Shown here: in pieces, positions 7,848-32,971 of the stretch
Layout: every line of letters starts with the position of its first letter
Position numbering within the stretch: the stretch's first letter is position 1
Source: a virus
Taxonomy: Duplodnaviria; Heunggongvirae; Uroviricota; Caudoviricetes
DNA: 32,971 bases
Reading direction: 5' to 3' (one strand)
Virus record (IMG/VR): IMGVR_UViG_2541047885_000016
Program-made: the position numbers and the translations under genes
The notes under the pieces: model-generated
What the model saw: the letters and a program-made list of their open reading frames with translations, nothing else
What the model was told of the DNA's origin: nothing
The model's database searches: none

Positions 7848-8168
7848 TCAACGAATACTGATGCCGGAAGCGGCTTTTTTGGTCACAATCACCGTACAGT
7901 CGGTGATATTACCTGCCCGCTGATTGCCTTTATGGAAAACCTTAAACTCCAGAGTGACGCTTCCCCTGCCACTCGGCATATCAATAACCGCACTGTAGCT
8001 ACCGGGAATGGCCCCTTTAGTTTCTCTGGATGCGATTAATACACCGTTGCCGGTGGATTTCCACCACTGGTAATGGTCGGGGCCGTCAGGCGTTTCAGGA
8101 ACACGTCGTTCATGAATATCTGATCGCCCTGACCAACAAACATCGGTTTTGTGTTGCCATTCGCAGGA
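7848..8168 (-). pseudogene. out-of-frame remnant of the J C-terminal receptor-binding region
   Basis: A frame +1 relative to J is open from 8168 to the stop at 7848..7850; its last ~60 codons (...GAIPGSYSAVIDMPSGRGSVTLEFKVFHKGNQRAGNITDCTVIVTKKAASGISIR) resemble the extreme C-terminus of lambda J as recalled (...IVDMPAGRGNVILTF...VMVIKKQALGISVV); the upstream part of that frame is junk-like. Confidence 0.55.
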
Positions 8169-10969
8169 TTAACCATCGCAATCCTGTCCGCCGCCAGCAG
8201 CACCTGACTCTGCATGCCGTCAGGGGTGTTCTCAATACCGGCACCAATACCCGCGATATAAAGGCGTCCGTCCTGCATCTGCTGCAGCTTCACAGCCCAC
8301 ATGCTGTTCAGGTTATTATTTGTATCAACCTGAACCTTCTGTATCTGCTGAATTGCCGCACTCTGGTCTTCCAGTTTCTTATTGACGGTCTGCGTGATTT
8401 CATTGCTGACATGCGTAATGGACGTCCTGATTTCAGCCAGGTCAGGCGCAAGCTGACCGTTATCAATCTGCGTCCACAGCTCCTGAGCCAGATGGGTTTT
8501 CCCTATCTCGCCTTTGAAAAAATCCAGATAACCGGATGCATCATCACTCGGCTGACCAACAGCCTCCACGAATGCCGATTTGCCGACGGTGTTCACACTG
8601 CGAACGTAAAAATAATAATCATGGCCCGGTTTGATATTGATACTGGCAGCTATCCAGTACAGCGCCGTACCAAGATAGCGGGCTGTGGTTTCAACCTGCC
8701 TGATATCCGCAATCCGCTTTTCCGAGAACCAGAACTCAAACTGTACCGTCGGATCATAAACGGCAAGATGCGGCGTTGCGGTTATCTGAAAATAGCCCGG
8801 CGTCAGCTCAATCCGCGACGGTGCTGCCGGTGCGGCAATCCGGAACGATACCGATGCCGGATCGCCCTGCTGCCCCCAGGCATTTGCCGCCCGGACTGTC
8901 AGCCTGTAGTTTCCCAGCGCCAGTTGCGTGAAGCGGTATGTGGTTTCCGTCGTCCGGGCCGTGCTGACCAGCCGCTCACTGCCGTCGTCTGCTGCCACAG
9001 TCAGGCGAAGCATAAAGCTCACACCCTTCACCACCTTCGGCGTGTCCCATCGCGCCAGCACCTGATATTCCCCGCTGTCTGCAGTGACTTCGGCGGTCAG
9101 ATGCTGCACTGCTGGCGGCGTGACACCATTCACCGTGCCGCTCTGGTCACCGTCAAAGTGCGCCCCGTTATCCACGATGGCCTCTTTCTCCGGCACATGC
9201 TGCACGGCAGTGATGGCATACGTGCCGTCGTCGTTCTCACGGATACTCACGCAGCGGAACAGGCGCTGGCGCAGCGTCGGCAGCTTAAGCCCCCACACGC
9301 TGTATTCAGCAACACCGTCAGGAACCCGGCTCACTTTTACCTTCACGCCGTCGGTGACGGACTGAACCTCCACGCTGACCGGACTCCCCTGCCCGTCAAC
9401 CAGGCTTATCAGCGTGGTGCCGGAGGCTGGCAGCGTGATTTCACGGTCGAGCGTCAGTGTCCGCGTCTGGCTGTTCACCGCCAGCACGCGCCCACCGGTG
9501 CTGATGCCCGCATAGTCATCATCGCAGATTTCAATGACATCGCCCGGTACATGGCGAAGCCCTTCGGCACCCACGCTGAAGTCCACGGTCTGCGTTTCCA
9601 GCAGTTCTGTTTTAATCAGCCACAGCCCGGCTCGGTGCGCCTGCCCCCGACTGGTACAGCCAAACGCATCCATCTTCGTGACGTTACGACCGTAACGGGC
9701 AATGGCCTGCGTGTCCTCCACAAGCTCTGTCGCCGTCTCCCAGCCGTTATCCGGGTCAATCCAGTTCACCTCAACGGCATTATGGCGGTCCTTGAGGGCG
9801 CTGAAGCTGTAGCGGAACGGCGCGCCATCATCCGGCATCACCACATTACTGCGGTTATAGGTCCACACCTTATCCGACGGCCGGTCCTGCACGAACGTCA
9901 GCGTCTGCCCGTTCCATACCGGCATACAGCGCATCGCCGAGCAGAAATCACTGAGCACATCCCACGCCTTGCGCTGTGTGGTCAGGTACGCATTACAGGT
10001 GATGCGCGGCTCCGTGCCGCCAAAGCCGTCCGGCACTGACTGGTCGCAGTACTGGCCGATGACATACAGCGCCCATTTGTCCACATCCGCCGCACCAAGA
10101 CGTTTCCCCATGCCGTAGCGTGGATGGGTCAGCATATCCCACAGACACCAGGCCATGTTATTGCTGTATGCTGGCTTAAACGTTCCGTCCCAGATACCGC
10201 TGTATTGCCGCGTCTGCGGGTTATAGTTCGACGGCACCTGCAGAATGCGCCCGCGAAGATGATAATTACGGCTCACCTGCTGGCTGCCGAACTGCTCCGA
10301 GTCCACCTGCACGCCGACCAGTGCCGTGTTCGGGTAGCACTGTTTCACATCGATGATTTCTGTGTATGACGACCAGAGCGTTTTGTTCTGCAGCTGGTCT
10401 GTGGTGCTGTCCGGCGTCATCCTGCGCATCCGGATATTAAACGGGCGCGGCGGCAGGTTATCCACCACCACCGAGGCCAGATACTGCGACGTGGTTTTGC
10501 CCTTAATGGTGATGTCTTTTTCCGTCACCCAGCCACCGTTACGCTGTATCTGAACCAGCAGACGGACTTCCGACGGATTCCTGTCACCCTTTGAGGTGGT
10601 TTCCACCAGTGCCTGCACACCGAAGGTAAAGCGCAGACGGTCGATGTTTGCAGACGTGATGGTCCGGGTAATCGGCGTGTCGTACTTCACTTCCGTACCC
10701 AGCACCGTCTCGGAGCCGGAGGATTCAAACCCCTCCGGCGGTGTCTGCTCCTGCTCACCTGCCCGGAACACCACCGTGACGCCGGAGATATTGGTATTCC
10801 CCTCACTGTCCAGCACTGGCGTACTGTTCAGCAGCACACTTTTTAATCCGTCCACCGGACCTTCAATCGGCCCTTCACTGATGGCGTCTATCACGCTCAG
10901 CATCTGGGATGATTTCAGGTTGTCCTTCGCTTCGCGCGGGGTATGCCCCTTACTGCTGCCTTTACCCAT
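8036..10969 (-). CDS. J: tail tip host-specificity protein J, C-terminally truncated
   Basis: 976-aa ORF collinear with lambda J from [20 protein letters not shown]... to ...[23 protein letters not shown], then 3 codons and a stop; lambda J is 1132 aa from memory. Confidence 0.9.
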
Positions 10970-11029
10970 TCCTCACGCTCCAGAAACGACAAAACCGCCC
11001 GCAGGCGGTTTCACATAAAACATTTTGCA

Positions 11030-11701
11030 TCAGCGACCAATCACCACAACCTGACCACCATCCCCTTCGTCTGCCGTGCTGATCTCCTGAGAGACCACAC
11101 GAGACCCCACGCGCATTTCACCGTACAGAACAGGCAGAACATTGCCCTGGGCAACCATGTTATCCAGTGAGGAGAAATAGGTGTTCTGTTTGCCGTTATC
11201 CGTTGTCTGTGTACGGGGAGTTCTGGCTTTCGGTGCCAGCATCTGCGCCACACCACCGAGCACCATACTGGCACCGAGAGAAAACAGGATGCCGGTCATA
11301 CCACCGGCCCCAATGGCTGCCCCCCATGCTGCAAGGGTGGCCCCGGCGGTAAAGAATGATCCGGCAATGGCGGCAGCCCCCAGGACAATCTGGAATACGC
11401 CACCTGACTTGGCCCCGGCGACTCTGGGAACAATATGAATCACAGCGCCATCAGGCAGAGTCTCATGTAACTGCGCCGTTAATCCGGACGTGCTGACATC
11501 CTGCCCGGCAATCCGTACCTGATACCAGCCGTCGCTCAGTTTCTGACGAAACGCCGGGAGCTGTGTGGCCAGCGCCCGGATGGCTTCGGCTCCCGTTTTC
11601 ACACGCAGATCGATGCGGCGACCAAATCGTTGTAAATCCCCGTAAAGGCAGATGCGTGCCATGCCCGGTGACGCCAGAGGGAGTGTGTGCGTCGCTGCCA
11701 T
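11030..11701 (-). CDS. I: tail tip assembly protein I
   Basis: 223 aa; matches lambda gpI as recalled (MAATHTLPLASPGMARICLYGDLQRFGRRIDLRVKTGAEAIRALATQL...); overlaps the 3' end of K as in lambda. Confidence 0.9.
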   Translation of the reverse strand: MAATHTLPLASPGMARICLYGDLQRFGRRIDLRVKTGAEAIRALATQLPAFRQKLSDGWYQVRIAGQDVSTSGLTAQLHETLPDGAVIHIVPRVAGAKSGGVFQIVLGAAAIAGSFFTAGATLAAWGAAIGAGGMTGILFSLGASMVLGGVAQMLAPKARTPRTQTTDNGKQNTYFSSLDNMVAQGNVLPVLYGEMRVGSRVVSQEISTADEGDGGQVVVIGR

Positions 11702-12342
11702 TTGTCGGTATACCTCTCTCGTTTGCTCAGTTGTTCAGGAATATGGTGCAGCAGCTCGCCGTCACCACAGTAAATGGCGGCATGATTCGGCACCGATGAA
11801 CCAAAACAGCACAACAGCACATCGCCCGGTTGTGCTGATGACAACGGCACCTGATACAGCCCCGTGGCCTCCAGATTATCCAGATAGAGATTCTGACCGT
11901 TACGCCACCAGTCATCCCCGCGATGAAAATCCGGCATCTCAATCCCCGCCAGATGATAAGCATCCCGGAACAGCGTGTAACAGTCCGTCACCCCGTGCTC
12001 AAAGCGCCGCCCGGTGAGATGCGGCACACAGCGGAACTTATGAATCGTCCCCCGGCAGACCAGCCACCACGGCAAATCACTCTGCACCTGCAGCCGCCGG
12101 TCGGCCTCACTCAGCCAGGGCAGACCACCGGGGTGGCTGTGGACCAGCGCCACAATCTCACCCTGCATTTCTGCCTGCAGCCAGTCTTCCGGCGACAGCC
12201 TGAAATACGCCTCCGGCTTACCGGAGATATTCACACAGGGAAAATATCTTTCCCCTTCCGGCGTTCTCACCACGAAGCCGCACGACTCCGCTGGCGCACA
12301 TCGCCGGGCGTGCGCCAGAATCGCTGATTCTGTCTCTGTCAT
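11599..12342 (-). CDS. K: tail tip assembly protein K (MPN/JAMM plus NlpC/P60-like)
   Basis: Start set at MTETESAILAHARRC... (track ORF extends 14 codons further upstream; start uncertain); JAMM-like motif HSHPGGLPWLSEAD; matches lambda gpK as recalled. Confidence 0.85.
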   Translation of the reverse strand: MTETESAILAHARRCAPAESCGFVVRTPEGERYFPCVNISGKPEAYFRLSPEDWLQAEMQGEIVALVHSHPGGLPWLSEADRRLQVQSDLPWWLVCRGTIHKFRCVPHLTGRRFEHGVTDCYTLFRDAYHLAGIEMPDFHRGDDWWRNGQNLYLDNLEATGLYQVPLSSAQPGDVLLCCFGSSVPNHAAIYCGDGELLHHIPEQLSKRERYTDKWQRRTHSLWRHRAWHASAFTGIYNDLVAASICV

Positions 12343-12346
12343 GGGT

Positions 12347-13045
12347 TTACTGCGAAAGTTTGTTAATGGAAAGGAAGCCGCCAAAGTTACCGACGTTATT
12401 GCGGAACTTACATCCGCTCAGGCATTTGCTGCATTTATCCTTCGTGATATCGGACGTTGGCTGGTCATATTCATCCGCGACCGCCGGACCGTGATAACCG
12501 CACTCATCGCCGCGATAGGTCCAGGTGCAGGTGTTGGCCAGCATGATACGTCCCGGAAAAACAGCGCCGTCCGTTTCCGTCGACGTGGCCAGTACAAAGG
12601 AGGCACTGACCGCGCTCAGTTCGCTGCACTGCTCGATGCGCCAGTGGCTGATCACCTCCTGCTCCGGATCGGCGTCTCTGTTTCCGTTGACGAAGTTCAC
12701 CGCATCCAGAAAACGGGCGTAAACCTTACGCCTGACCACCGTTCCGCCGACCAGACTCTGCAGGTCTTCCGCCATCCCGGTGACCATGCCGTGCAGGTTA
12801 GAAACCGTCAGTGTCGGACGGGCAGCACTGCCCTTGCCATTCAGTTCAAATCCCGTCCCCTGAATGGGGTATGCCTGATACTGCCGCCCCTGCCAGGTAA
12901 CCGGCTCACCTTTTTCGTTCTGCTCATTACAGAAAAAATAACGTTCTCCACCGACCTCTGTCAGATCGATTTCCCAGAGCACCACGCTGGCCGACTGCTC
13001 CGCACGGGTGCATTCATTCAGTGTTTCCTGCCGGATATCCTGCAT
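12347..13045 (-). CDS. L: tail tip protein L
   Basis: 232 aa; matches lambda gpL as recalled (MQDIRQETLNECTRAEQSASVVLWEIDLTEVGGERYFFCNEQNEKGEP...). Confidence 0.9.
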   Translation of the reverse strand: MQDIRQETLNECTRAEQSASVVLWEIDLTEVGGERYFFCNEQNEKGEPVTWQGRQYQAYPIQGTGFELNGKGSAARPTLTVSNLHGMVTGMAEDLQSLVGGTVVRRKVYARFLDAVNFVNGNRDADPEQEVISHWRIEQCSELSAVSASFVLATSTETDGAVFPGRIMLANTCTWTYRGDECGYHGPAVADEYDQPTSDITKDKCSKCLSGCKFRNNVGNFGGFLSINKLSQ

Positions 13046-13374
13046 CAGTTCACCACCTGTTCAAACTCTGCGCTGAACTCAACACGCAGCATACTGACCC
13101 GCGACGACCATTTTGCGCAGGTCACCTTTATCTGCCGCCACTCATAAGGCGGCGTCCACAGAAAGGATTTCCAGCCCCCGTGCTCAGCCAGAAACGACTC
13201 AAGCGCCGTGGCCTCCCAACGGGGAACAGAAAGCGTCACGCTGTACGTTTTCAGGTCAGCGTTCAGCCCGGCAGGCGCTCGCTGGGAATAGCCATCACCA
13301 AAGCGCACCTTTCTTACAGAAGGGACCGAAGCCACATCCATACCGGGTTTCACTTTCCAGCGGAAGGTCTTCAT
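13045..13374 (-). CDS. M: tail tip protein M
   Basis: 109 aa; matches lambda gpM as recalled; start/stop overlaps with H and L. Confidence 0.9.
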   Translation of the reverse strand: MKTFRWKVKPGMDVASVPSVRKVRFGDGYSQRAPAGLNADLKTYSVTLSVPRWEATALESFLAEHGGWKSFLWTPPYEWRQIKVTCAKWSSRVSMLRVEFSAEFEQVVN

Positions 13375-15950
13375 CGTCCACCTCCGGAGAACAGGCCACC
13401 ATCACGCATCTGTGTCTGAATTTCATCGCGGGCACCCTTGCGGGCCATGTCATACACTGCTTTCATCATCTGTGGACCTGGCAGACCATTCGTACCGTCG
13501 TTCTGAATCACCACGTTGTTGTTCTGCTCAAACCTGATACCCTCTGAACGCCGCATTTGCGCCGGACTTCCGGTGCCACCGACATAACCGCCGGTGGCAT
13601 AGCCGCGCATCAGCCGGTAGAGATTTCCCACGCCAATCCGGCTGGTTGCCTCCTTCGTGAAGACAAATTCACCACGGTGAACAATCCCCGCTGGCTCATA
13701 TTTGCCGCCGGTTCCCGTAAATCCTCCGGTTGCAAAATGGAATTTCGCCGCAGCGGCCTGAATGGCTGTACCGCCTGACGCGGATGCGCCGCCACCAACA
13801 GCCCCGCCAATGGCGCTGCCGATACTCCCGACAATCCCCACCATTGCCTGCTTAAGCAGAATTTCTGTCATCATGGACAGCACGGAGCGGGTGAAGCTGC
13901 GCCAGTTCTGCTCACTGCCGGTCAGCATCGCCGCCATATTCTGTGCAATACCATCAAAGGTCTGCGTGGCTGCACTTTTTACCTGCGACATACTGTCCGT
14001 GGCGCTCTCTTCCCACTCTCTCCAGCCGGACCTGAGGCCTGCCATCCAGCTCCCGCGAAGCTGGTCTTCAGCCGCCCAGGTCTTTTTCTGCTCTGACATG
14101 ACGTTATTCAGCGCCAGCGGATTATCGCCATACTGTTCCTTCAGGCGCTGTTCCGTGGCTTCCCGTTCTGCCTGCCGCTCAGTCAGCCCCCGGCTTTTCG
14201 CATCAATGGCGGCCCGTTTTGCCCGTTGCTGCTGTGCGAATTTATCCGCCTGCTGCGCCAGCGCGTTCAGGCGCTCCTGATACGTAACCTTGTCGCCAAG
14301 TGCAGCCAGCTGGCGTTTGTACTCCAGCGTCTCATCTTTATGCGCCAGCAGGGATTTCTCCTGTGCAGACAGCTGGCGACGTTGCGCCGCCTCCTCCAGT
14401 ACCGCGAACTGACTCTCCGCCTTCCACAAATCCCGGCGCTGCTGGCTGATTTTCTCATTTGCTCCGGCATGCCTCTCCAGCGTCCAGAGTTCAGCCTGAA
14501 GCGTCAGCAGGGCAGCATGAGCACTGTCTTCCTGACGATCGCCCGCAGACACCTTCACGCCGGACTGTTTCGCCTTTTTCAGCGTCGCTTCATAGTCCTT
14601 TTTCGCCGCCGCCATCAGCGTGTTGTAATCTGCCTGCAGAATTTTCCCGTCCTTCAGTGCCTTGTTCAGTTCTTCCTGACGGGCGGTATATTTCTCCAGC
14701 GGCGTCTGCAGGCGTTCATAAGCCTTCTGCGCCTCTTCGGTATATTTCAGCCGTGATGCCTCAGACTCGGCCCAGTCCTTTGCTGCCATCTCTCTGGCCT
14801 TTTCAAGATCGGCCTGCAACGTGGCGGCTGAAAGCCCAAGTTGCGCATTCGCTCTGTCCTCCCATGCTCCCCGGAGATTGGCAAGAAATGCGGATGTTTT
14901 ACCGCGCCGGTGGCTCCGGCTCTGATACCACTGCCATTTTTTGTCCGCCTCATCAAAAGCCTTTTCTGCTTTCTCCAGCATTTCCCGGGCAGTGTCCGGG
15001 CGACCAATATCCAGCACCGAATCCCACATGGATTTGAATGCCCGTGCTGTCCTGTCTGCCCAGGTCTCCAGCGTGCCCATGTTCTCTTTCAGGCGGCGGG
15101 TCTGGTCATCAAACCCTTTCGTTGCGGCCTCGTTCGCCGCCTGCAATGCCCCGGCTTCATCTCCGGAACGCTGCAACTGAGCAACATACGCAATCTGCTC
15201 CGCCGTCACGTTATGGAACTGACGTGCCATCGCTGTCAGTCCCGACGTCGGGTCTGTGGTCAGCTTCCCGAAGGCTTCAGCGACCTTGTCCACCTCCACG
15301 CCGGATGCAGAGGAGAAACGCGCCACACTCTGGCTGATCGCCTCAAACTGCTCACCACCACGCACACCGGCATTCACCAGCGCCGTCAGTGACTCGCTGG
15401 TCTGGTTAAACGTCAGCCCTGCCGCCTGCCCGGCTCTGGACAGGGCCAGAATACGATCTGCCGTCAGTCCCGCCTGATTGCCGGAAAGGACCAGCGTTTT
15501 GTTGAAATCGGACAGGGTTGAGTTGCCCTGATACCAGGCATACGCCAGCGCACCGGTCGCCACCGCCAGCGAGGTGGCCCCCACCATCGGCAGGGTGATC
15601 GCACCGGCAAGCCCCCTGAACATGGGGATCATCCCGCCGAAGGAGTCCTTAACCTGACCACCCTGTTGCAGCAGGATCAGCCACGGACTTTGCCCGCCTG
15701 CAAGCTGCGTGGCCACGTCGGTGAACTGTGCAGGCAGCATACGCATGGCGGCTTTATACTGCCCGACGGAAATCCCCGCTTTCTGTGCAGCCAGCGCCTG
15801 TCGGCTCAGCGACTGTTCAACGACTGCCGCTGTTTTTTTCGCATCACTTTCCGTACCGGAAAAATGACGCCTGACTCTGGCCATCTGCTCGTCAAATCTG
15901 GCCGCATCCAGACTCAAATCAACGACCAGATCGCCTACCGGTTCAGCCAT
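13371..15950 (-). CDS. H: tail tape measure protein H
   Basis: 859 aa; N- and C-terminal regions match lambda gpH as recalled (MAEPVGDLVVDLSLDAARFDEQ... / ...MRDGGLFSGGGR); a central segment of about 60 aa differs. Confidence 0.9.
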   Translation of the reverse strand: MAEPVGDLVVDLSLDAARFDEQMARVRRHFSGTESDAKKTAAVVEQSLSRQALAAQKAGISVGQYKAAMRMLPAQFTDVATQLAGGQSPWLILLQQGGQVKDSFGGMIPMFRGLAGAITLPMVGATSLAVATGALAYAWYQGNSTLSDFNKTLVLSGNQAGLTADRILALSRAGQAAGLTFNQTSESLTALVNAGVRGGEQFEAISQSVARFSSASGVEVDKVAEAFGKLTTDPTSGLTAMARQFHNVTAEQIAYVAQLQRSGDEAGALQAANEAATKGFDDQTRRLKENMGTLETWADRTARAFKSMWDSVLDIGRPDTAREMLEKAEKAFDEADKKWQWYQSRSHRRGKTSAFLANLRGAWEDRANAQLGLSAATLQADLEKAREMAAKDWAESEASRLKYTEEAQKAYERLQTPLEKYTARQEELNKALKDGKILQADYNTLMAAAKKDYEATLKKAKQSGVKVSAGDRQEDSAHAALLTLQAELWTLERHAGANEKISQQRRDLWKAESQFAVLEEAAQRRQLSAQEKSLLAHKDETLEYKRQLAALGDKVTYQERLNALAQQADKFAQQQRAKRAAIDAKSRGLTERQAEREATEQRLKEQYGDNPLALNNVMSEQKKTWAAEDQLRGSWMAGLRSGWREWEESATDSMSQVKSAATQTFDGIAQNMAAMLTGSEQNWRSFTRSVLSMMTEILLKQAMVGIVGSIGSAIGGAVGGGASASGGTAIQAAAAKFHFATGGFTGTGGKYEPAGIVHRGEFVFTKEATSRIGVGNLYRLMRGYATGGYVGGTGSPAQMRRSEGIRFEQNNNVVIQNDGTNGLPGPQMMKAVYDMARKGARDEIQTQMRDGGLFSGGGR

Positions 15951-16377
15951 ACCGGACTCCTCCTGCGATCCCTTCTGATACTGTCATCAGCATTACGTCA
16001 TCCTCCGTCATGTCCGCCACATCCGGGGAAGTAGGGATAACTTCATTCCCGTCCGGGCCAAAGCGGACACCTCCGGCAAGCCCTGCCGCTTTCTGCATCA
16101 GCACATCATCTTCAGGCTCCTCGTCAGCCTCGCGCCGGTTCAGCAAACTGAAATCCAGCGGATGCATATCCGGATCGCTGAAAAACAGGCTGAGCACGGT
16201 GTACGTCAGCCCGGAAAAGTGCATATCCAGCAGAACATCATGAAAATAATGGGTACTGTAAAAGCGGTGCCAGTCGGCATACTCCGTGGATGACATCCCG
16301 GCAAGCATGGCACGCCAGTCGGGTCGCCCCATCTCACGCGCCAGTTTCAGGGCAAAACTCAGCTCACCGTCGAACAC
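15943..16377 (-). CDS. T: T portion of the G-T tail assembly chaperone, expressed by -1 frameshift from G
   Basis: ORF in the -1 frame overlapping the 3' end of G; no ATG or RBS of its own (track start is a GTG); sequence FDGELSFALKLAREMGRPDWRAMLAGMSS... matches lambda gpT as recalled. Confidence 0.85.
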   Translation of the reverse strand: MFDGELSFALKLAREMGRPDWRAMLAGMSSTEYADWHRFYSTHYFHDVLLDMHFSGLTYTVLSLFFSDPDMHPLDFSLLNRREADEEPEDDVLMQKAAGLAGGVRFGPDGNEVIPTSPDVADMTEDDVMLMTVSEGIAGGVRYG

Positions 16378-16781
16378 TTTCCCGCAGAAACAGGCTCTGC
16401 AGGCCCGGCGTCCTCTGTCTGTTCAGGGGTATTATTCACAACAAACTCATACATACCAGACAGCCGGTACACCACGTTTTCAGCATGAGAAATTGCCTCC
16501 GTGGGCCAGGTGGTAAGCACTTCCTGCTCAATCTGTTTAACGGCTTCATTCATGGACGGCATCTGCGTCTTCTGCGGATGGTTATGCCACAGGGACATCG
16601 CCACCAGAAACGCGCCGGTTCTGATGGCGTCTTCCACAGTAAACTTCCGGTTGCTGTCTGACTCCGCCTGTTCTGCCTGCCGTTTCATCAGGGCGAGATG
16701 CTCAATACGCTGCAGGGCTGACAGTTCAGAAAGCGTGACGGTCACACCGTTATGTTCAAATGATTCGGTTTTCAGGAACAT
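16359..16781 (-). CDS. G: tail assembly chaperone G
   Basis: 140 aa; matches lambda gpG as recalled; contains the slippery heptamer near its 3' end. Confidence 0.9.
   Translation of the reverse strand: MFLKTESFEHNGVTVTLSELSALQRIEHLALMKRQAEQAESDSNRKFTVEDAIRTGAFLVAMSLWHNHPQKTQMPSMNEAVKQIEQEVLTTWPTEAISHAENVVYRLSGMYEFVVNNTPEQTEDAGPAEPVSAGKCSTVS
16377..16383 (-). other. programmed -1 ribosomal frameshift slippery heptamer G GGA AAG (G to G-T fusion)
   Basis: Minus-strand GGGAAAG read as gcG GGA AAG in the G frame, 5 codons before the G stop; the -1 frame continues into T. Confidence 0.8.
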
Positions 16782-16796
16782 CTCTGACTCTCCGGA

Positions 16797-17537
16797 TTAA
16801 CTGGCGGTGACGGTGATTTCTGCAACCGCAGCAAACTCACCATTACCGGATACGACCGGAATGTTGACCTTACCTGCAGCAACGCCATTCACGGTGATGG
16901 TCATACCACTGACCGACACGGTGGCTTTTGTTTTATCCGCTGACACCGCACGGAAGCTCTTGTCGGTTGCGCCTTCCGGCTGGAATGCCACGGTCAGCGT
17001 GGTGCTCTTCCCTTTCACTACGGAAGCGCTGGCTGGCGTCACGGTCATACCGGTTGCCGCTGTTACCGTGCTGCGATCTTCTGCCATCGACGGACGTCCT
17101 ACGTTGGTGACTTTCACCGTGCGGGTGATCACGTCCTTCGCCGTCACCGCCTTACCGATACTGCTGACCCAGCCGCGGAACACATCGACCGTGCCGTTCG
17201 GGAAGCGGATTTTATAGGCACGGGTATCACCTTCATTAAACCACGCCAGCAGCGCCTGCTGCCCCTGCTCTCCGGGCATCCACGCCAGCGTGAAGCTGGT
17301 ATCTCCGGCAGATTTCTGCCCCTGTCCGGTCGCGGTCCAGTCCGCATCTTCATCATCGAGATAACTGTCGTCATAGGACTCAGCGGTCAGTTCGCCGGGC
17401 GTCAGGTCTTTAACCTTTGCCAGACGCGACCAGTCATTGTCTGAAAGCGGGTTTGCATAAGGGTCGCCGCTCCCGTTATAAACCCACAGTGTGGTCCCGG
17501 CCCCTTTCACCGGTGCCAGAGGATTTGGTGTTGGCAT
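16797..17537 (-). CDS. V: major tail tube protein V
   Basis: Start set at [20 protein letters not shown]... (track ORF has a 10-codon upstream extension); 246 aa; matches lambda gpV as recalled. Confidence 0.9.
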
Positions 17538-17544
17538 ATCGTCC

Positions 17545-17940
17545 TCACATTTCATAGGTAATGACATAAGTCAGATCGGCTGAACTCCACAGGCCCGCAT
17601 CATCGTCGCGCCGGTAGTCATAGCCACTGGCCACCATACTGGTGATCAAATCTGACAGTGCCGGGATATCGCTCATCACCGGATAAATCCGGGACTCCAT
17701 CCACGAATCCAGCTCTGAATCCGGCACCTGAGCAGGCAGGAAAACTTCAATATGCAGCTCCGCCTGCCAGGTATCGCTGTCCAGCTCTTCGCCCGTGTAT
17801 TCAGCGCCGGTGAGATAAACGGCAATTGCCGGAAAATCTTCCTCATCAAAAACAGCGGGGCGACCATCAAAAAGCGTCGCCCCGGTGTCATGCTTCTCCA
17901 GTGCATCCAGTACGGCTGCACGGAGTTCAGTATGTTTCAT
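17545..17940 (-). CDS. U: tail terminator protein U
   Basis: 131 aa; [31 protein letters not shown]... matches lambda gpU as recalled. Confidence 0.9.
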
Positions 17941-18515
17941 CGCTTTATTACCATTCTCAGTTGATGCTGCAGCGCATAGCCCAGCTCTTTCGGAAGACGC
18001 TCACGCCGTATCCGCTCAATATTCTGTTTAAACGCCGTGGTCAGCGGCACCGCCATCGGAATTTTCACCACATCAATGGGGTAACGGTTTTTCCCGGCCA
18101 CACGCTGCATGACATGCCACCGGCCATTTTTCAGTTGCTGAATAAACGCGCCGGGAATACGACGGTTTCCCACCACAAGCACGCTGCCGCCACCTTTCAG
18201 GGATGAACGCTGCCCCTTTTTACGACGCCTGCGGCGGGACAGGACAACCCGCGCATTACCCAGCTTGATTACGGGCAAATCCCCCCGGTTAACCCTGATT
18301 CTGGCCTGCGGATTTTTGACCGTGGCCCTTTTCAGCCTGGCCCTTTCCTTTACCAGTTTCCGGCGTACCTTTGTCTCACGGGCAACCTGTGACGCCGACT
18401 GCGATATCGCGGATGAAGCAACGCGGTTAATGGCCATTGCGGCGGCACCGGGCACCGCCGTTTTGCTGATACGGCTGAGGTTTTCAACGGCCTGCTCAAG
18501 ACCTTTTATGGCCAT
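17937..18515 (-). CDS. Z: tail completion protein Z
   Basis: 192 aa; matches lambda gpZ as recalled; ATGA overlap with U. Confidence 0.9.
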   Translation of the reverse strand: MAIKGLEQAVENLSRISKTAVPGAAAMAINRVASSAISQSASQVARETKVRRKLVKERARLKRATVKNPQARIRVNRGDLPVIKLGNARVVLSRRRRRKKGQRSSLKGGGSVLVVGNRRIPGAFIQQLKNGRWHVMQRVAGKNRYPIDVVKIPMAVPLTTAFKQNIERIRRERLPKELGYALQHQLRMVIKR

Positions 18516-18526
18516 ACATCCCCCTT

Positions 18527-18880
18527 TCAGCGGCGACGGTTAACGGCAGGCGGTACGCCCCGCCCAAGCCAGAGATGACAGCTTCCGCCATCATCCGGCG
18601 AAATCCGGTCTATCCAGAAGTTTTCCTCACCGATGGTTAGCGTGTCGCCGCGCCGCAGCTGCCGCACATCATCAGTCCGGACAAACAGGGACGGGCTGGA
18701 GCCTTCAACGCGTACGCCCTGTCCGGCATAGCTGATATTTTCAGGGTCATCAAAAACACCACGTATTACTGCGCCGGACTGCTCACCGGATGTCATGGTG
18801 GCTGACGTTCCCATGTACCCGCGTATCGTTTCATCGGCGCGGGCAATGGCAGCATCGAACAGGTTATCGAAATCAGCCAC
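18527..18880 (-). CDS. FII: head-tail joining protein FII
   Basis: 117 aa; MADFDNLFDAAIARADETIRGYMGTSATMTSGEQSGAVIRGVFDDPENISYAGQGVRVEGSSPSLFV... matches lambda gpFII as recalled. Confidence 0.9.
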   Translation of the reverse strand: MADFDNLFDAAIARADETIRGYMGTSATMTSGEQSGAVIRGVFDDPENISYAGQGVRVEGSSPSLFVRTDDVRQLRRGDTLTIGEENFWIDRISPDDGGSCHLWLGRGVPPAVNRRR

Positions 18881-18891
18881 AGCGCCTCCCG

Positions 18892-19287
18892 TTATTGCAT
18901 TCTGGCCAGGCCACGTTCTGTCATTTCGGCTGCCACACCGGCAGAGACACGAAACGCCGTTCCCGGCAGCACAAATGCCACAGCCTCATCCCGCGTGACG
19001 TGAAGTGCATCGGTATGCAGCGTCACCAGTGCCACAACCGTGACCAGAGCAGCCGTATCAGTCACGGAATCCGGCTGTGCTGATACCACCTCATTTTCAT
19101 GTCCGGTCAGCGCATTTTCCGGGCTGACAGACGTGTCCTGACCGGCTGCGTCATCCGTGTCATCAAGCTCCTCTTCCAGCTCTGCCACACGGAGCGCCAG
19201 TTCTTCTTTCGTCCCCGTCAGGCTGACATCACGGTTCAGTTGCTCACCCAGCGACCGGAGACGGGCAATCAGTTCATCTTTCGTCAT
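18892..19287 (-). CDS. FI: DNA packaging / head completion protein FI
   Basis: Start set at MTKDELIARLRSLGEQLNRD... with GGAGGAG RBS (track ORF has a 13-codon upstream extension); 131 aa. Confidence 0.85.
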   Translation of the reverse strand: MTKDELIARLRSLGEQLNRDVSLTGTKEELALRVAELEEELDDTDDAAGQDTSVSPENALTGHENEVVSAQPDSVTDTAALVTVVALVTLHTDALHVTRDEAVAFVLPGTAFRVSAGVAAEMTERGLARMQ

Positions 19288-19328
19288 GGACTCCTCCACA
19301 GAGAGAAAATGGCCCCGAAGGGCCATGA

Positions 19329-20354
19329 TTACGCCAGTTGAACGGACACGAACTCATCAGGGTCAGCCAGCAGCATCAGCGGTGCTGACTGAATCATGGT
19401 GAACTCACGCGCCGGGTCGCCGGTGGTCACCCAGTTTTTCGGGTAACGGGCAGAGGCGTTAATGCCTTCGCGCTGTGCGTCCGCATCCTGAATGCAACCA
19501 TAGGTGCGCAGACCGCGTGCCTGAGTGTTCCCCAGCACCATCGTGTTGTCCGGCAGGAAGTTCTTTTTGACGCCGTTTTCCACGTACTGTCCGGAATACA
19601 CGACGATGGCCACATCGCCATACATTCCCTTATAAGACACCGCTTTGCCCAGGTCTTTTACCGCTGTCTCCAGCTCGGAATGAGAGCCGCGACGGGTATC
19701 CAGCTTCTCCTTGACGGCCTTGAAGGAACGGAACAGCGCCCAGCCTTTCGGATCAAACACGATGATATTCACCACACCGCTGGCGTTCAGCGCGTAGGCT
19801 TCGATATCGTCGGTCGGGTCATACGTGGACTTGTCACGCTTGCTCCACTCTGTGCCGCCGGACTGCGTGATGTTATTCGCCGCACTGCGGCCCATATCCA
19901 CCTCAACCGGATCGAAGGCTTCACCGGTCATGGTGTATTTGCCCTTAAGCACGGCAGAAACTGCCTGCATCTCTTCGACCTGGGCAATCGCCAGATTTTC
20001 ATCCAGCATATTCTGCCGAATAATACGGCGACGACGGTAAGCCGGGTCAGCCAGGTTCTGCGGATCTTCATCCGGCAGGCGACGCAGGGTCATCTGCGGA
20101 TTCACCTCATGCTTGGGTTTGACATAACCCGGCGTAAATTCAGAGGTGGAGCCGCCACGGGATCGGATAACCTCACCGGAAACAATCGGCGAAACGTACA
20201 GCGCCATGTTTACCAGTCCCGGAATTTGTGAGAGATAGACTTTTTCCGTGGTGAAAGGATAGGTTTCACGGAAAAACAGGCGCAGAAACAGCGGATCGAA
20301 CTTAAAGTGATGCTGGGTCGATGCCAGTAATTCTGCAGTTGTATATACAGACAT
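19329..20354 (-). CDS. E: major capsid protein E
   Basis: 341 aa; matches lambda gpE as recalled along its length. Confidence 0.95.
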   Translation of the reverse strand: MSVYTTAELLASTQHHFKFDPLFLRLFFRETYPFTTEKVYLSQIPGLVNMALYVSPIVSGEVIRSRGGSTSEFTPGYVKPKHEVNPQMTLRRLPDEDPQNLADPAYRRRRIIRQNMLDENLAIAQVEEMQAVSAVLKGKYTMTGEAFDPVEVDMGRSAANNITQSGGTEWSKRDKSTYDPTDDIEAYALNASGVVNIIVFDPKGWALFRSFKAVKEKLDTRRGSHSELETAVKDLGKAVSYKGMYGDVAIVVYSGQYVENGVKKNFLPDNTMVLGNTQARGLRTYGCIQDADAQREGINASARYPKNWVTTGDPAREFTMIQSAPLMLLADPDEFVSVQLA

Positions 20355-20367
20355 AAATTATTTCCAT

Positions 20368-20388
20368 AAAAAAAGCCGCACAGGCGGC
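20368..20388 (-). terminator. terminator-like hairpin plus U-run between D and E
   Basis: Stem GCCGC/GCGGC with a 4-nt loop followed by U7 on the minus strand, 14 nt upstream of the E start; may be a partial terminator or mRNA-stability element. Confidence 0.35.
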
Positions 20389-20409
20389 CTTTGTTGATGA
20401 AGGGGAAGA

Positions 20410-20742
20410 TTAAACGATGCTGATTGCCGTTCCGGCAAACGCGGTCCGTTTTTTAGTCTCGTCGCTGGCAGCCTCCGGCCAGAGCACATCCTCATAACGA
20501 AACGAGCCGGACTTGTAGAACGTCAGTGTGGTGCTGGTCTGGTCAGCAGCAACCGCCAGAATGCCAACGGCTGCACCGTCGGTGGTGCCATCCCACACAA
20601 CCAGCTTACGGGTAGTGCCATCCAGCATCAGCGGGGTCATTGCAGGCGTTTTCGCACTCAATCCGCCAGGCGCAATTGCTGTATGAGCCGGATCACTGTT
20701 ACCCAGCGGCTGGTAATGGTTAAACTCTTCTTTTGTCGCCAT
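20410..20742 (-). CDS. D: capsid decoration protein D
   Basis: 110 aa; [42 protein letters not shown]... matches lambda gpD as recalled. Confidence 0.95.
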
Positions 20743-20751
20743 AACTGCCTC

Positions 20752-22063
20752 TTATACCGGTAAAGCTTCAGGTGTATTAAGTAATTCTTTATTGGTATCA
20801 GATGCCAGGTTACCTGCAGCCAGCGGTGCCGGTGTACCCTGCATCAGACGATCCAGCGCAGTGTCACTGCGCGCCTGTGCACTCTGTGGTGCTGCAGCCA
20901 GAATGCGGCGGGCCGTTTCCACGGTCATTCCGGGGGTTTCTGCCAGAACGCGCGCCTGTTCTTCGCGTCCGTGAGCCTCCTCACAGTTGAGGATCCCCAT
21001 AATGCGGCTGTTTTCTGCCGCAACCGCTGCGGTGATCTGCGCGTTCACGTCCGGCTGCGCCGCGCTGGCGTTTTCGCCCTCCGTCGCTGGCACCACGTCA
21101 GTAACGTCAGCCTGCGAAGCAGTGGCTGAAACAGTTGTTGATTGAGTCTCTTTGGTCATTCGCCCTCCTGAGAGACGGGATTTACGCGCATCCAGTGCAT
21201 CACGCATGACGGTGATCGCATCGGTGCTGTTAACAAGTTCATCAGCCAGTCCGGCATCAATGGCCTCCTGACCGCTGTACACTGCAGCCTCGGTATCCAG
21301 CACAGCCTGCACAGACAGGCCGGTATATGCCGACACCTTCTGCGCAAACATCTGGCGGGTTGCGTCCATCCGGGACTGCAGTGTCTCCCGGACGTCATCC
21401 GGAAGATGGCTGTAGGGATTGCCATCCACCTTATGGCTGCCGCTGTAAATCAGCGTGATTTCCACACCCTGTTTCTCCAGGGCAGCACCGTAATTACTGT
21501 GAGCCATCATGACGCCGATGGAGCCTGTCCGGGCGGTCTGCGTGACCAGACGCCGGGAGGCGGCACTGGCAAGCAGCTGACCTGCACTGCAGTTCATGTC
21601 GTTGGCCAGCGCCCATACCGGTTTTATGTCACGCACACGGGCGATGATGTCAGCGCAGTCAAATGCCCCCGCCACCATTCCGCCTGGCGTGTCCATATCG
21701 AGCAGAATGCCGTCCACCATCGGGTCGCTGGCAGCCTGTTGCAGACGGGCGATAATGCCGTTGTAACCGGTCATCCCCGAGTACGGCTGCAGCGCCCGCG
21801 TCCGGCTGACCAGCGTGCCGGACACCGGCAGCACGGCGATGCCGTTCATGACCTGATAACTGCGGGCCTGTCGTGGTCCGTCATCATCACCGGATAATGC
21901 CAGCGTCGCGAGTGCCTCCTGGGCAGTCAGGCTGTCGCCGGACACCGCATCCGTCAGGCGGCTGATCCCAAGCTGGCCTGCAAGCGCACAAAAGAAAACC
22001 CGCGCATAGGCGGGTTCAAGCATCAGCGGCTCATTAAAGGCCATGCTGGCAATATGCGGGAGA

Positions 22064-22083
<20 letters not shown>
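20752..22083 (-). CDS. C: capsid assembly protease C (scaffold Nu3 is expected to be nested in-frame in its 3' part)
   Basis: Start set at the GTG giving VTAELRNLPHIASMAFNEPLML... with GGAGGAG RBS (track extends 49 codons upstream); 443 aa; matches lambda gpC as recalled; overlaps the 3' end of B. Confidence 0.85.
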
Positions 22084-25764
<3,681 letters not shown>

Positions 25765-25790
<26 letters not shown>

Positions 25791-26310
25791 TCAGCAACCC
25801 CGGTATCAGTTCATCCAGCGCGGCTGCTTTGTTCATGGCTTTGATGATATCCCGTTTCAGGAAATCAACATGTCGGTTTTCCAGTTCCGGAAAACGCCGC
25901 TGCACCGACAGGGGGATCCCGTCGAGAATACTGGCAATTTCACCTGCGATCCGCGACAGCACGAAAGTACAGAATGCGGTTTCCACCACTTCAGCGGAGT
26001 CTCTGGCATTTTTCAGCTCCTGTGCGTCGGCCTGCGCACGCGTAAGTCGATGGCGTTCATACTCAATAGTCCCTGGCTGGAGATCTGTCTCGCTGGCCAG
26101 CCGCAGTTCTTCAACCTCCCGGCGCAGCTTTTCGTTCTCAATTTCAGCATCCCTTTCGGCATACCATTTTATGACGGCGGCAGAGTCATAAAGCACCTCA
26201 TTACCCTTGCCACCGCCTCGCAGAACGGGCATTCCCTGTTCCTGCCAGTTCTGAATGGTACGGATACTCGCACCGAAAATGTCAGCCAGCTGCTTTTTGT
26301 TGACTTCCAT
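25765..26310 (-). CDS. nu1: terminase small subunit Nu1
   Basis: 181 aa; MEVNKKQLADIFGASIRTIQNWQEQGMPVLRGGGKGNEVLYDSAAVIKWYAERDAEIENEKLRREVEEL... matches lambda Nu1 as recalled. Confidence 0.95.
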
Positions 26311-28973: not shown

Positions 28974-29997
<1,024 letters not shown>

Positions 29998-30001
<4 letters not shown>

Positions 30002-30309
30002 AGATATTTATGATGAGGACGCTCGTGCTTATTGGCAGGATTTTCAATCTTAAAGGAGTACTGATGCTGCAGATAAGACTCAACTTTTTCTGACAATTTT
30101 TCTGCTACTTCCAGGAAGACTTGCCGGACGCTCCTTCTGGCTGCTGCCTCATAAAACTCCAGCGCAGCTCCTTCAACACGGTCCATGGCGACATCCAGGT
30201 CAAAAATTTCACCGTCAAAGCGTTCTTTGTCCTGTAAGGCTACAGTTACCGTAACTTTATTCTCAAAATTACGGACTCCTTTCACAACCAGTTCATAGTC
30301 TTGAGTCAT
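29998..30309 (-). CDS. ydfR: DUF1327-family protein between holin and endolysin
   Basis: 103 aa MTQDYELVVKGVRNFENKVTVTVALQDKERFDGEIFDLDVAMDRVEGAALEFYEAAARR...; ATGA overlap with the endolysin start. Confidence 0.7.
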
Positions 30310-30313
30310 TGGA

Positions 30314-30529
30314 TTACTCTCCTCTCGCAGCCTTACGCCTGTCTTCTTTAATCTTGAAATAAAGATTTGTCAGATACGTCAGCAGGCCAAAAACCAGGCT
30401 ACCCAGCACACCGATTGCAGCCCACTGTGACGGAGTTACTTTATCGAGTAACTGCAATGCCCAGAAACCAGCATTACCCGCCGATGTGCCATAGGCAACA
30501 CCTGTTGTTAACTTATCCATTGATTTCAT
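30314..30529 (-). CDS. essQ: class II holin (S21-like pinholin) with dual-start motif
   Basis: 71 aa [71 protein letters not shown]; Met1/Met4 dual start; GGTGAGGA RBS; closely resembles phage 21 S as recalled (track ORF has a 25-codon upstream extension). Confidence 0.9.
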
Positions 30530-30748: not shown

Positions 30749-30919
30749 ATGTCAGAACGTAAAAACTCAAAATCACGCCGTAATTATCTCGTTAAATGTT
30801 CCTGCCCAAACTGCACCCAAGAGTCAGAACACAGTTTTTCAAGAGTACAAAAAGGTGCCCTTTTGATCTGCCCTCATTGCAACAAAGTATTCCAGACAAA
30901 TCTTAAAGCTGTAGCCTGA
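30749..30919 (+). CDS. 56-aa four-cysteine zinc-ribbon-like small protein
   Basis: MSERKNSKSRRNYLVKCSCPNCTQESEHSFSRVQKGALLICPHCNKVFQTNLKAVA; AGGAAAAG RBS; Cys pairs CSC/CPNC and CPHC. Possibly the Qin small protein YnfU, but this is not confirmed. Confidence 0.6.
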   Translation: MSERKNSKSRRNYLVKCSCPNCTQESEHSFSRVQKGALLICPHCNKVFQTNLKAVA

Positions 30920-30974
30920 TTGATTTTATTAGTAACAAGTATTTTTTATATTTTAATAATATATTTAAAGCAGA

Positions 30975-31001
30975 TAATAAAAAACCCGCCTGAGCGGGTT
31001 T
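30975..31001. terminator. intrinsic terminator hairpin (probably bidirectional) between the zinc-ribbon gene and cspB
   Basis: Perfect stem AAACCCGC/GCGGGTTT with 4-nt loop at 30982..31001; U-rich run follows on the minus strand (UUUAUUAU). Confidence 0.6.
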
Positions 31002-31282
31002 GAGATTGTGGTGCTTTTTGTGGGAGTCATCCACTTACGCACTTTGTTTTGCCATGCCAGCAGTTAGCTTCTGCTGTAAAACTATTCATGCAGCAAACCT
31101 GCACTTCACCACAATGGTTAGCATACTTTTCCTGATTAAGATTTTGCCAAATATGCTAGCCATTGTTTCATGTATTGGACCTCCTTACTTTTTATTAAAG
31201 AGATCCAATATTCACTACTCTGTCCGTATCTCTACTCAGGCATCAGCCTTCTTCGTTATCGTATACAGACGAGCGATGAATT

Positions 31283-31498
31283 TTAATCAGTAATGATGAC
31301 ATTTGCTGCTGCAGGACCTTTAGCACCACTCTCTATAGAGAAGGTAACCTTTTGACCTTCAAATAAGGTTCGATAATTATCATTCTGAATCGCAGAAAAA
31401 TGCACAAACACATCTTTACTACCATCAACAGGAGAAATAAAGCCGAAACCTTTATCAGCGTTAAACCATTTTACTAAACCAGTCATTTTATTTGACAT
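31283..31498 (-). CDS. cspB: CspA-family cold shock protein
   Basis: 71 aa [71 protein letters not shown]. Confidence 0.9.
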
Positions 31499-31798
31499 TC
31501 TACATTCCTTAACTTGAGCCTTTCGGCATAAATGGTTTGCATAACAGAAACGACTTCGTACTTAATTGGAGAGACTCAAAGAAGGAATAAGTGAATAACA
31601 CCTGAAATGAGAACTGCTTTAGTAAACTACTTCGTATATCGTCTGTTCTTCAAACCGACGCAATCATTAACGCATAGTTGAACATATGAAGCAATGTTTA
31701 TTTTAGACATCCAGCCATCTTCAACCCCATCAAAAAACTATAGCTTTCTTCAGGAACGTGTGTATAGTGCGCCAAGTTATCAGTATTAAGGAATTTTT

Positions 31799-32011
31799 TT
31801 GTCCCGTAAAATGACAGGAATTGTCAAAACCTTTGACGGCAAAAGCGGCAAGGGTCTTATCACCCCATCCGATGGTCGTATCGATGTCCAGCTTCATGTT
31901 TCAGCGCTCAATCTCCGCGATGCAGAAGAAATTACCACCGGATTACGCGTGGAATTTTGCCGGATAAATGGTCTGCGTGGCCCTTCAGCTGCCAATGTTT
32001 ACCTTTCATGA
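31799..32011 (+). CDS. cspF: CspA-family cold shock protein (divergent paralogue), apparent TTG start
   Basis: 70 aa (M)[69 protein letters not shown]; AAGGAA RBS correctly spaced for the TTG at 31799. Confidence 0.85.
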
Positions 32012-32065
32012 GCTATATTAAAGCTTTAATTTCAGGCCCCATCGGATCACACATGGAGAGTTTTT

Positions 32066-32155
32066 ATGAATAACCCCGTCTGTCTTGATGACTGGTTGAT
32101 TGGCTTTAAAAGCTTATGCTGTACTTTGGCCGTAATAGCTCTGCTAATAATATAA
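32066..32155 (+). CDS. candidate 29-aa hydrophobic peptide ([29 protein letters not shown]) downstream of cspF
   Basis: Hand-translated; GGAG at 32056..32059 about 6 nt upstream of the ATG; C-terminal hydrophobic helix; lies between cspF and the terminator at 32304..32327. Confidence 0.3.
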
Positions 32156-32303
32156 TAAGCAGACTCATTGTGTTTAGGGACATTGTACTGGAAGAAAACA
32201 TTTTAAACATCAGGCAAATAACCAAGTCACCAGCTAAATAATAAGTTAACAGACATGAGTCCCGGGATGAGATTCAACATTACCATTGCCCCATTTAAAG
32301 CAC

Positions 32304-32327
32304 AAAACCCGCTCATCAGCGGGTTTT
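32304..32327. terminator. bidirectional intrinsic terminator: tR'-like for the short late-promoter transcript and terminator for the cspF unit
   Basis: AAAACCCGCTCATCAGCGGGTTTT perfect hairpin with flanking U-runs on both strands. Confidence 0.7.
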
Positions 32328-32372
32328 CTACTTTTTCTTAACGTCGGGTATACAAAGCCCATCGTTGAAAAA

Positions 32373-32401
32373 ATTTTATCCATATTTTTTGAAAAATGCA
32401 A
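32373..32401 (-). promoter_or_regulatory. sigma70-type late promoter (pR'-like) immediately downstream of Q
   Basis: Minus strand TTGCAT (-35, 32396..32401), 17-nt spacer, TAAAAT (-10, 32373..32378); about 30 nt after the Q stop; a transcript from about 32366 would end at the hairpin about 65 nt downstream. Confidence 0.6.
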
Positions 32402-32432
32402 ACATCATGTCGCCATCTTCAGCAAAAATCAT

Positions 32433-32743
32433 TTATCTCGTCACCTTCCTCAATTGCGCTTCCGCGTATGCTTCTTCCTGCCAGCACTTTGTTACCAGTT
32501 TACCAATGACGTCCGCATACCCCTTATACCACTGATAATCGGTCAGGTCTGGTACCAGCTTCTGGACATGACGTCGTGCCAGCGTGGTCGGTAAACGACT
32601 AAACCGGTTTCCATTACAACGCCCACAAATCTTATATACCGGTACGCCATGAAACCGGGTTCTTTTTTCATCCAGAACAATCCCTTTACCCTTACACCCT
32701 CTGCACGCTGTGCTGGCTTCGCCCTTACCATGGCAATGCTGAC
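32433..32743 (-). pseudogene. quuQ: late antiterminator Q, C-terminal fragment; the gene is split by an IS insertion
   Basis: Open frame ends at the stop 32433..32435 and runs upstream into the IS end at 32744; encodes ...QHCHGKGEASTACRGCKGKGIVLDEKRTRFHGVPVYKICGRCNGNRFSRLPTTLARRHVQKLVPDLTDYQWYKGYADVIGKLVTKCWQEEAYAEAQLRKVTR with two CxxC pairs; position directly upstream of the late promoter. Confidence 0.65.
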
Positions 32744-32971
32744 TGAACCGCCCCGGGTTTCCTGGAGAGTGTTTTATCTGTGAACTCAGGCTGCCAGATC
32801 ATCGTTTCCGATGGAAGCATAATAAGCTTTTTCTGCTTCTGCCGGAGGAGTATGGCCCAGCCTTTCCAGCAATCGTCGATTGTTATACCAGTCCACCCAC
32901 GTGAGTGTGGCCAGTTCCACTTCTGCACGGTTTTTCCAGCTCTTACGGTGTATTACCTCCGCTTTGTAAAG
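32744..32971 (-). mobile_element. IS3-family insertion sequence (IS629/IS1203-like), one end only; continues beyond the window
   Basis: Terminal inverted repeat TGAACCGCCCCGGGTTTCCTGGAGAGTGTTTTATCTGTGAACTCA starting at 32744 (TG...CA type end); internal transposase 3' end; matches the IS629 end as recalled. Confidence 0.8.
32786..32971 (-). CDS. IS3-family transposase OrfB, C-terminal 61 codons (partial)
   Basis: Hand-translated minus-strand frame LYKAEVIHRKSWKNRAEVELATLTWVDWYNNRRLLERLGHTPPAEAEKAYYASIGNDDLAA-stop (stop at 32786..32788); no Met in the window, so absent from the ORF track. Confidence 0.8.
   Translation of the reverse strand, partial: LYKAEVIHRKSWKNRAEVELATLTWVDWYNNRRLLERLGHTPPAEAEKAYYASIGNDDLAA

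Follow-up and report, generated by a model that had tools for sequence, protein, structure and literature searches.

The DNA analysed here, called the window throughout, is a stretch of 32,971 nt from a tailed virus (Caudoviricetes; IMG/VR record IMGVR_UViG_2541047885_000016). Its chromosomal site is that of a Qin-type prophage lying between ydfJ and rspB, with ydfJ at positions 1-1284 of the window and, in the source scaffold L025 (KE701653.1, GCA_000460275.1), int beside rspB and rspA. The scaffold is 100% identical to window 22786-32971 (10,186 bp), and its contig reaches a gap of 815 Ns one base past the window end. The features at the right-hand end of the window are the following.

32744..32971, minus strand: right end of the insertion sequence IS629 (IS3 family), from identity to annotated IS629 and matches to rve_2/rve_3
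32433..32743, minus strand: 3' remnant of quuQ/ydfT, a late antiterminator of the Q-lambda family, from its translation, PF03589 and K-12 identity
32373..32402, minus strand: pR'-like late promoter, from a consensus scan and alignment with lambda pR'
32358..32368, minus strand: block TCAACGATGGG resembling a sigma-dependent pause element, from alignment with lambda
32296..32327, minus strand: intrinsic terminator (tR' equivalent), from a hairpin scan and RNA folding

The Q remnant and its late control region

The frame at 32433-32743 consists of 102 codons and a stop at 32433-32435, and translates as QHCHGKGEASTACRGCKGKGIVLDEKRTRFHGVPVYKICGRCNGNRFSRLPTTLARRHVQKLVPDLTDYQWYKGYADVIGKLVTKCWQEEAYAEAQLRKVTR. 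It holds codons 149-250 of quuQ plus two nucleotides of codon 148, the break point falling at codon 148 of 250, within the CQHC motif; the 5' 442 nt of the gene are missing, and with them the N-terminal 147 residues. The DNA is 100% identical to the ydfT/quuQ region of K-12 MG1655 over window 31001-32743, and homology ends at 32743. In Pfam the remnant matches 'Antitermination protein Q' (PF03589; 6.5e-32, 110 bits, cut-off 26.7) over profile positions 1-87 of 87, and this profile represents the Q-lambda family (PMC9388147). It aligns end to end and free of gaps with lambda Q residues 107-207, the very C-terminus of that protein (PDB 7ubj, 4mo1, 7ubm), and it retains two complete CxxC motifs, CRGC and CGRC, such that its Cys4 zinc ribbon CRGCKGKG...CGRCNGNR pairs with CRDCHGTG...CGRCKGVG in the same lambda Q structures. 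No NCBIfam model matched the remnant, and a literature search found no functional work on quuQ/ydfT. The original prediction had read this frame as the C-terminal ~100 codons of a Q protein with two CxxC motifs, which agrees with the 102 codons and the lambda alignment, and the Q-family similarity on which that reading hung is evident in the Pfam match. Judged by its sequence, the remnant is a member of the family by descent, but a pseudogene.

Full-length K-12 QuuQ (L002 4434-5186) contains four CxxC(x)G motifs (CEHC, CQHC, CRGC and CGRC) and matches the Pfam Antiterm domain twice, whereas lambda Q has a single zinc ribbon; the intact proteins differ in length as well (250 aa for QuuQ with its four CxxC motifs, 207 aa for lambda Q). 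This pattern suggests that the zinc-ribbon unit has been internally duplicated in the QuuQ branch of the Q family.

The loss removes the part of the protein on which antitermination depends in lambda, where residues 1-44 of Q form a torus in the RNA-exit channel and a protein shortened by just residues 1-38 no longer antiterminates (PMC9388147). The remnant covers what corresponds to lambda Q 107-207; it has nothing to match residues 1-106, which include the torus-forming N-terminal segment. Nor does the adjoining IS629 sequence offer a replacement for the lost start. The Q frame runs into the element as far as an in-frame stop at 32799-32801, after which there is no ATG in that frame, and the only GTG and TTG codons are found 3 and 6 codons short of the Q stop. 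No OrfB-Q fusion protein is expected either, because OrfB, the transposase frame of the element, stops 42 nt short of the IS end. By this reading of the frames, a functional Q cannot be made from the remnant, which has no usable start codon. One might suppose that the C-terminal fragment is nevertheless expressed, for example by read-out from IS629, and keeps some antitermination or DNA-binding activity, given that the zinc ribbon and the C-terminal helix region aligning with lambda Q 107-207 are preserved. The stop inside the element, the want of a later ATG, the position of GTG and TTG only near the Q stop and the separation from OrfB all argue against such expression, and the far smaller deletion in lambda Q already abolishes antitermination, such that we consider an active fragment extremely improbable.

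Downstream of the Q stop, the sequences through which a Q protein would act are in place. The pR'-like promoter starts 30 nt after the stop and comprises a -35 element TTTGCA (32402-32397), an 18-nt spacer and a -10 element TAAAAT (32378-32373). Taken by itself, the sigma70 consensus is weak evidence (3 sites found versus 1.9 expected by chance), but the promoter call is strengthened because the 11-mer TCAACGATGGG, which holds the -10-like AACGAT and occurs exactly once in the window, is identical to that of lambda pR' and lies just as far from the -10 element. The spacer of the promoter partly resembles, in a sequence-only alignment, the region of the lambda Q-binding element. The terminator consists of a G+C-rich hairpin (32327-32304) followed by the U-tract UUUUGUGCUUU; it folds at -30.4 kcal/mol (z = -4.3), and 0 of 200 shuffled sequences fold as well. 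Hence the sigma70-type late promoter that had been predicted ~30 nt past the end of Q, in the position that Q occupies in lambdoid phages, is found there together with a pause block and a terminator.

This layout follows the logic of a Q cassette, in which the Q gene, PR', a sigma-dependent pause element, a terminator and the late genes succeed one another (PMC9388147). The cassette shares with that of lambda the protein family (PF03589), the order of its parts and the identical TCAACGATGGG at equal distance from the -10 element, but it differs in that the terminator is much nearer to the promoter, cold-shock genes lie between the terminator and the holin gene, and the Q gene is truncated and cannot work. 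RNA polymerase leaving the intact pR'-like promoter would be expected to pause at the AACGAT element and, having no Q to load, to end at the hairpin terminator, such that the promoter-proximal transcript would measure roughly 65-70 nt as judged from the coordinates.

The same region is shared with Qin of K-12. Window 27999-32743 is 99.96% identical to MG1655, and the gene order is alike (Q, promoter/terminator, ynfS, cspF, cspB, ynfU, holin, ydfR, lysozyme, rzpQ and cspI). K-12 has a full quuQ of 250 codons followed by ydfU, rem, hokD and relBE, whereas only codons 149-250 are found here; conversely, the lambda-like head and tail genes present in the window are absent from K-12 Qin.

The IS629 element, its flanks and the missing early region

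IS629, also called IS1203, is an element of the IS3 family with a length of 1310 bp. In the window its terminal inverted repeat starts at 32744 (TGAACCGCCCCGGG...), and positions 32744-32971 match the right end of the element annotated as 'IS3 family IS629' in LC567824.1 at 228 of 228 nt, with 0 mismatches; the copy in LC567824.1, an Stx2a phage, measures 1310 bp and is flanked by the target duplication CCAG. The last 61 residues of OrfB are encoded at 32786-32971 on the minus strand (stop at 32786-32788), in the same reading direction as Q, and match rve_2 (3e-6) and rve_3 (1.5e-5) in Pfam. An IS629-like end from 32744 with a minus-strand OrfB C-terminus had been claimed from the DNA alone, and the comparison with the annotated element upholds this. 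The terminal inverted repeats of IS629 are imperfect, the two ends agreeing at 23 of the first 25 positions.

The window ends inside IS629, one base before the 815-N gap of the scaffold, and contains only the OrfB C-terminus. This truncated fragment of 61 residues led to the scaffold, whereas the large terminase and GnsB proteins of the window matched many relatives but not the source. On the scaffold the element is laid out as a left end of 284 nt (0 mismatches), the 815 Ns and a right end of 229 nt; the left 284 nt and the right 228 nt are thus identical to annotated IS629, and the middle 797 nt that one copy of the element needs are replaced by Ns in a gap whose size fits a 1310-bp element. 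A complete IS629 of 1310 bp is found in the closest relative that we found, L012 (GCA_001030635.1, KQ087962.1), with 6 mismatches to the annotated element (99.5% identity), and both of its reading frames, OrfA and OrfB, are hit by the IS3 transposase model of NCBIfam.

Beyond the left end of the element, the scaffold does not return to quuQ. The far flank is a prophage exonuclease gene that lacks some 267 nt at its 5' end; xis and int come next, then rspB and rspA of the chromosome. The sequences abutting the IS are ...ACAAAAGAAGC on the Q side and GTCAGCATTGCC... on the exonuclease side (in a longer extract, ...AAGAAGC and GTCAGCATT...). No target-site duplication accompanies this copy, the flanks ...AAGC and GTCA... 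having no 3-4 bp repeat in common, a result that holds if the join across IS629, which is the assembler's scaffolding through the 815-N gap, is correct. In this respect the element differs from the copies in LC567824.1, with its duplication CCAG, and in strain LC-1302-2020, with TGG. The absence of a duplication points to deletion or recombination after insertion. Searches with QuuQ residues 1-148 by tblastn in the window, in the scaffold (10 kb beyond the IS) and in L012 did not find the N-terminal part of the protein.

To place the break points we used strain 7/2, whose genome is complete and has these Q and late modules as well. They fall at 33858/33859 and 47473-47476 of the corresponding locus (L036), and ~13.6 kb between them are missing here. 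By comparison with strain 7/2, the missing DNA comprises the 5' part of quuQ, ydfU, rem, hokD, relE, relB, ydfV, flxA and ydfW/ISNCY, a KwaB-like gene, queH, a DUF977 gene and ydaT, as well as the cro-like and cI-like repressor genes, ydfA, ydfB, dicB, ydfD and the start of exo. Both flanks, int-xis-exo on one side and Q with the late genes on the other, keep their normal relative orientation, as a plain deletion would leave them. We thus think it likely that Q was truncated and not split: an IS629-bounded deletion would have taken the 5' part of quuQ together with ~13.6 kb of the early region, leaving a scar of prophage decay. Such a deletion could have formed in two ways, either through recombination between two like-oriented IS629 copies, one that had entered quuQ and one that had entered exo, or through an adjacent deletion generated by a single IS629 copy; the sequence fits either route.

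The original prediction had instead taken Q to be interrupted by a simple insertion, such that the second IS end would be reached after about 1.3 kb, together with a target duplication of 3-4 bp and the missing N-terminal half of the gene. This part of the prediction fails on the scaffold, where the left end of the IS adjoins exo, no duplication is present and the frame beyond the element belongs to an exonuclease in place of a continued Q-like ORF, in keeping with the negative tblastn search for the Q N-terminus. The split could be rescued only if multiple copies of IS629 had misled the assembler into the join to exo, with one IS629 sitting in an otherwise intact quuQ; one would then predict, beyond the left end of the element, the 5' half of quuQ ending in …GGAACTAT, with its 147 N-terminal codons, and a repeat of 3-4 bp, GAC or TGAC. 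Events of this kind do occur in quuQ. In LC-1302-2020 (L001 5052-6361) a simple insertion of a 1310-bp IS629 lies 308 bp further into the gene, bears the TGG duplication and has both Q halves annotated; moreover, the join in L025 does run through Ns. However, the contigs on the Q side and the exo side are linked by a gap of 815, close to the 797 nt required for one IS629, the exo-side contig ends in the left end of IS629 in the orientation expected of a single copy, and the nearest relative, L012, also lacks the 5' half of Q beside its IS629. A simple insertion hidden by misassembly is accordingly unlikely, and the deletion remains our preferred reading. The locus also teaches caution in a more general way: a contig that ends inside an IS gives no proof that the interrupted gene continues beyond it, and the scaffold here shows a 13.6-kb deletion.

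Scans for the exact junction between truncated quuQ and the right inverted repeat found it neither in 5,426 complete E. coli genomes nor in GTDB species representatives or JGI metagenomes, and the junction between exo and the left inverted repeat is not present in one piece in the complete E. coli genomes (n = 5,426). Hence no second independent genome sharing both junctions was found among the complete E. coli genomes, the GTDB representatives and the JGI metagenomes.

IS629 and IS1 at quuQ in other genomes

Over 18.9 kb, the relative L012 differs from the window by 5 SNPs and one indel, and it also carries an IS629 at this site. Its copy (1741-3050) is inserted at the equivalent of window 32739-32743, 4 bp away from the junction in the window and in the opposite orientation, such that ...CAATGC meets the left inverted repeat in L012 whereas ...CAATGCTGAC meets the right inverted repeat in the window. 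On the far side of the L012 element lies the DNA beside ydfW/ISNCY, the result of a 4.08-kb deletion, and no target duplication is found. L012 had been considered as the source of the window and was rejected on account of this inverted, displaced element and its other far flank. We considered that the L012 and L025 structures might have been interconverted by recombination between IS copies, and rejected this, since such events preserve each junction between flank and IS. The pair may instead represent independent hits at a favoured site, or a second copy may have been inserted beside a resident IS end before the two prophages diverged.

The inverted copy in L012, 4 bp off and with another far flank, speaks for repeated IS629 activity at this spot, and it lends some colour to a more complex rearrangement, in which at least two IS629 copies with inverted or translocated DNA would occupy the gap and the early region would have been moved elsewhere and not lost. 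Against this, the gap size fits a single IS629, and the int-xis-exo and Q-late flanks lie in normal orientation, as for a plain deletion, so that we judge a relocation of the early region to be quite unlikely. With the deletion as the preferred account, the different arrangement of L012 still marks the locus as prone to rearrangement, and its history may exceed one deletion.

Near-identical prophages with oppositely oriented IS629 copies 4 bp apart and different deletions, a third strain with an independent IS629 in the same gene (LC-1302-2020) and IS1 in the ydfT-ydfU region of five complete E. coli genomes raise the question of whether the gene is struck more often than by chance. These cases could be read to mean that quuQ near codon 148 is a preferred target of IS629, or that selection favours the silencing of Q where a lineage retains the complete late operon; in a related version, the orphan cassette and late operon would be activated in trans. 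If the latter were true, the intact pR', pause element and terminator, together with the late operon, could be switched on by the Q of a co-resident or superinfecting phage of matching specificity. We regard these proposals as rather unlikely. A quuQ-type gene is found in 2,638 of 5,426 complete genomes, and for 2,413 of these 2,638 a single place accounts for 80% or more of the query. This is a rough proxy for an uninterrupted quuQ, as a gene with a short insertion such as IS1 would still count as a single place. A strong hot spot or selection at quuQ is unsupported by these counts.

Stx2a prophages are known to vary mainly in the copy number and position of IS629, and roi, lysozyme and stx2 are among the phage genes that the element interrupts (PMC4587872; PMC7430833). 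The present case resembles the IS629-driven diversification of lambdoid prophages in EHEC O157:H7 in that IS629 inactivates prophage genes, but it differs in its target, the Q gene of a Qin-type prophage without stx, and in its outcome, a large adjacent deletion and not a simple interruption. All of the components (quuQ of Qin, the Q-lambda cassette, IS629 and IS629-driven prophage decay) were already known, and what we describe is ordinary genome decay.

The prophage body and its remaining functions

The late genes that the Q cassette would serve are as follows.

28974..30529, minus strand: lysis cassette downstream of the Q-controlled terminator, from the ORF list, Pfam and K-12 annotation
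30314-30529, minus strand: holin, from Pfam Phage_holin_2_1
29998-30309, minus strand: YdfR, from the ORF list and K-12 annotation
29468-30001, minus strand: lysozyme, from the ORF list and K-12 annotation
28974-29471, minus strand: RzpQ (DUF2514), from Pfam DUF2514
8036..26310, minus strand: lambda-like morphogenesis operon (Nu1, A, W, B, C, D, E, FI, FII, Z, U, V, G, T, H, M, L, K, I and J), from its ORFs and Pfam on L012
8036..10969, minus strand: tail-tip gene J, truncated, from BLASTP, reading frames and DNA alignment

The morphogenesis operon depends on read-through from pR', and its Pfam labels were taken from locus L012 (99.97% identical). The operon is nearly complete, and its structural ORFs are lambda-like in length, with the exception of J. 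The product of this gene has 977 aa, compared with 1159 aa in strain 7/2, and BLASTP shows 98% identity over residues 1-974, followed by a stop. A net loss of 358 nt, with its junction near 7889-8047, has caused a frameshift, and the last ~60 codons of J are readable only in another frame (...VIDMPSGRGSVTLEF...KKAASGISIR). The receptor-binding end of the protein has probably been lost.

Without Q, the lysis and morphogenesis genes would stay silent, and the removal of the cI-like and cro-like regulator genes and of the genes between them and Q would leave the element non-inducible. Read from its genes, the prophage is thus defective for several independent reasons: Q, the early region and J. 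That it is cryptic, as originally predicted, agrees with the impossibility of a functional Q, the frameshift in J and the deletion of the early region. The cause that had been given, the disruption of Q, is right as far as it goes, but it is not the only lesion, in view of the ~13.6 kb of early region deleted with the cI/cro-like genes and the truncated J.

The genes that remain with control regions of their own are cspB, cspI, cspF, the gene for an Ail/Lom protein, gnsB, ydfO and that of a Pin-like invertase. Although cspB and cspI lie within the late operon, they have their own cspA-type 5'UTRs; the Rfam cspA thermoregulator matches 31267-31659 (158.8 bits) and 28372-28757 (110.4 bits), both on the minus strand. 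These leaders lend substance to the earlier suggestion that morons could be expressed from their own promoters, and expression from the prophage would probably be limited to genes so equipped (cspB, cspI, cspF, lom, gnsB and ydfO).

For annotation, the appropriate label is a quuQ pseudogene bounded by IS629. In the scoring of prophages, the element should be entered as a non-inducible remnant without Q, the cI/cro-like regulators, dicB and an intact J, and not as the product of a single reversible IS event. The importance of the case beyond annotation is small.

Two further observations concern the genes left in the prophage. The gene gnsB is intact in the window (27552-27728, minus strand), whereas L012 has one extra base at the equivalent of 27662 and no gnsB call; the 57-aa GnsB of the window is extremely common (58,140 index blocks). 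The Pin-like serine invertase (2619-3209, plus strand; Resolvase and HTH_7, 2.5e-36) adjoins the tail-fibre and tail-fibre-assembly genes (3741-7120, minus strand), an arrangement typical of invertible host-range segments.
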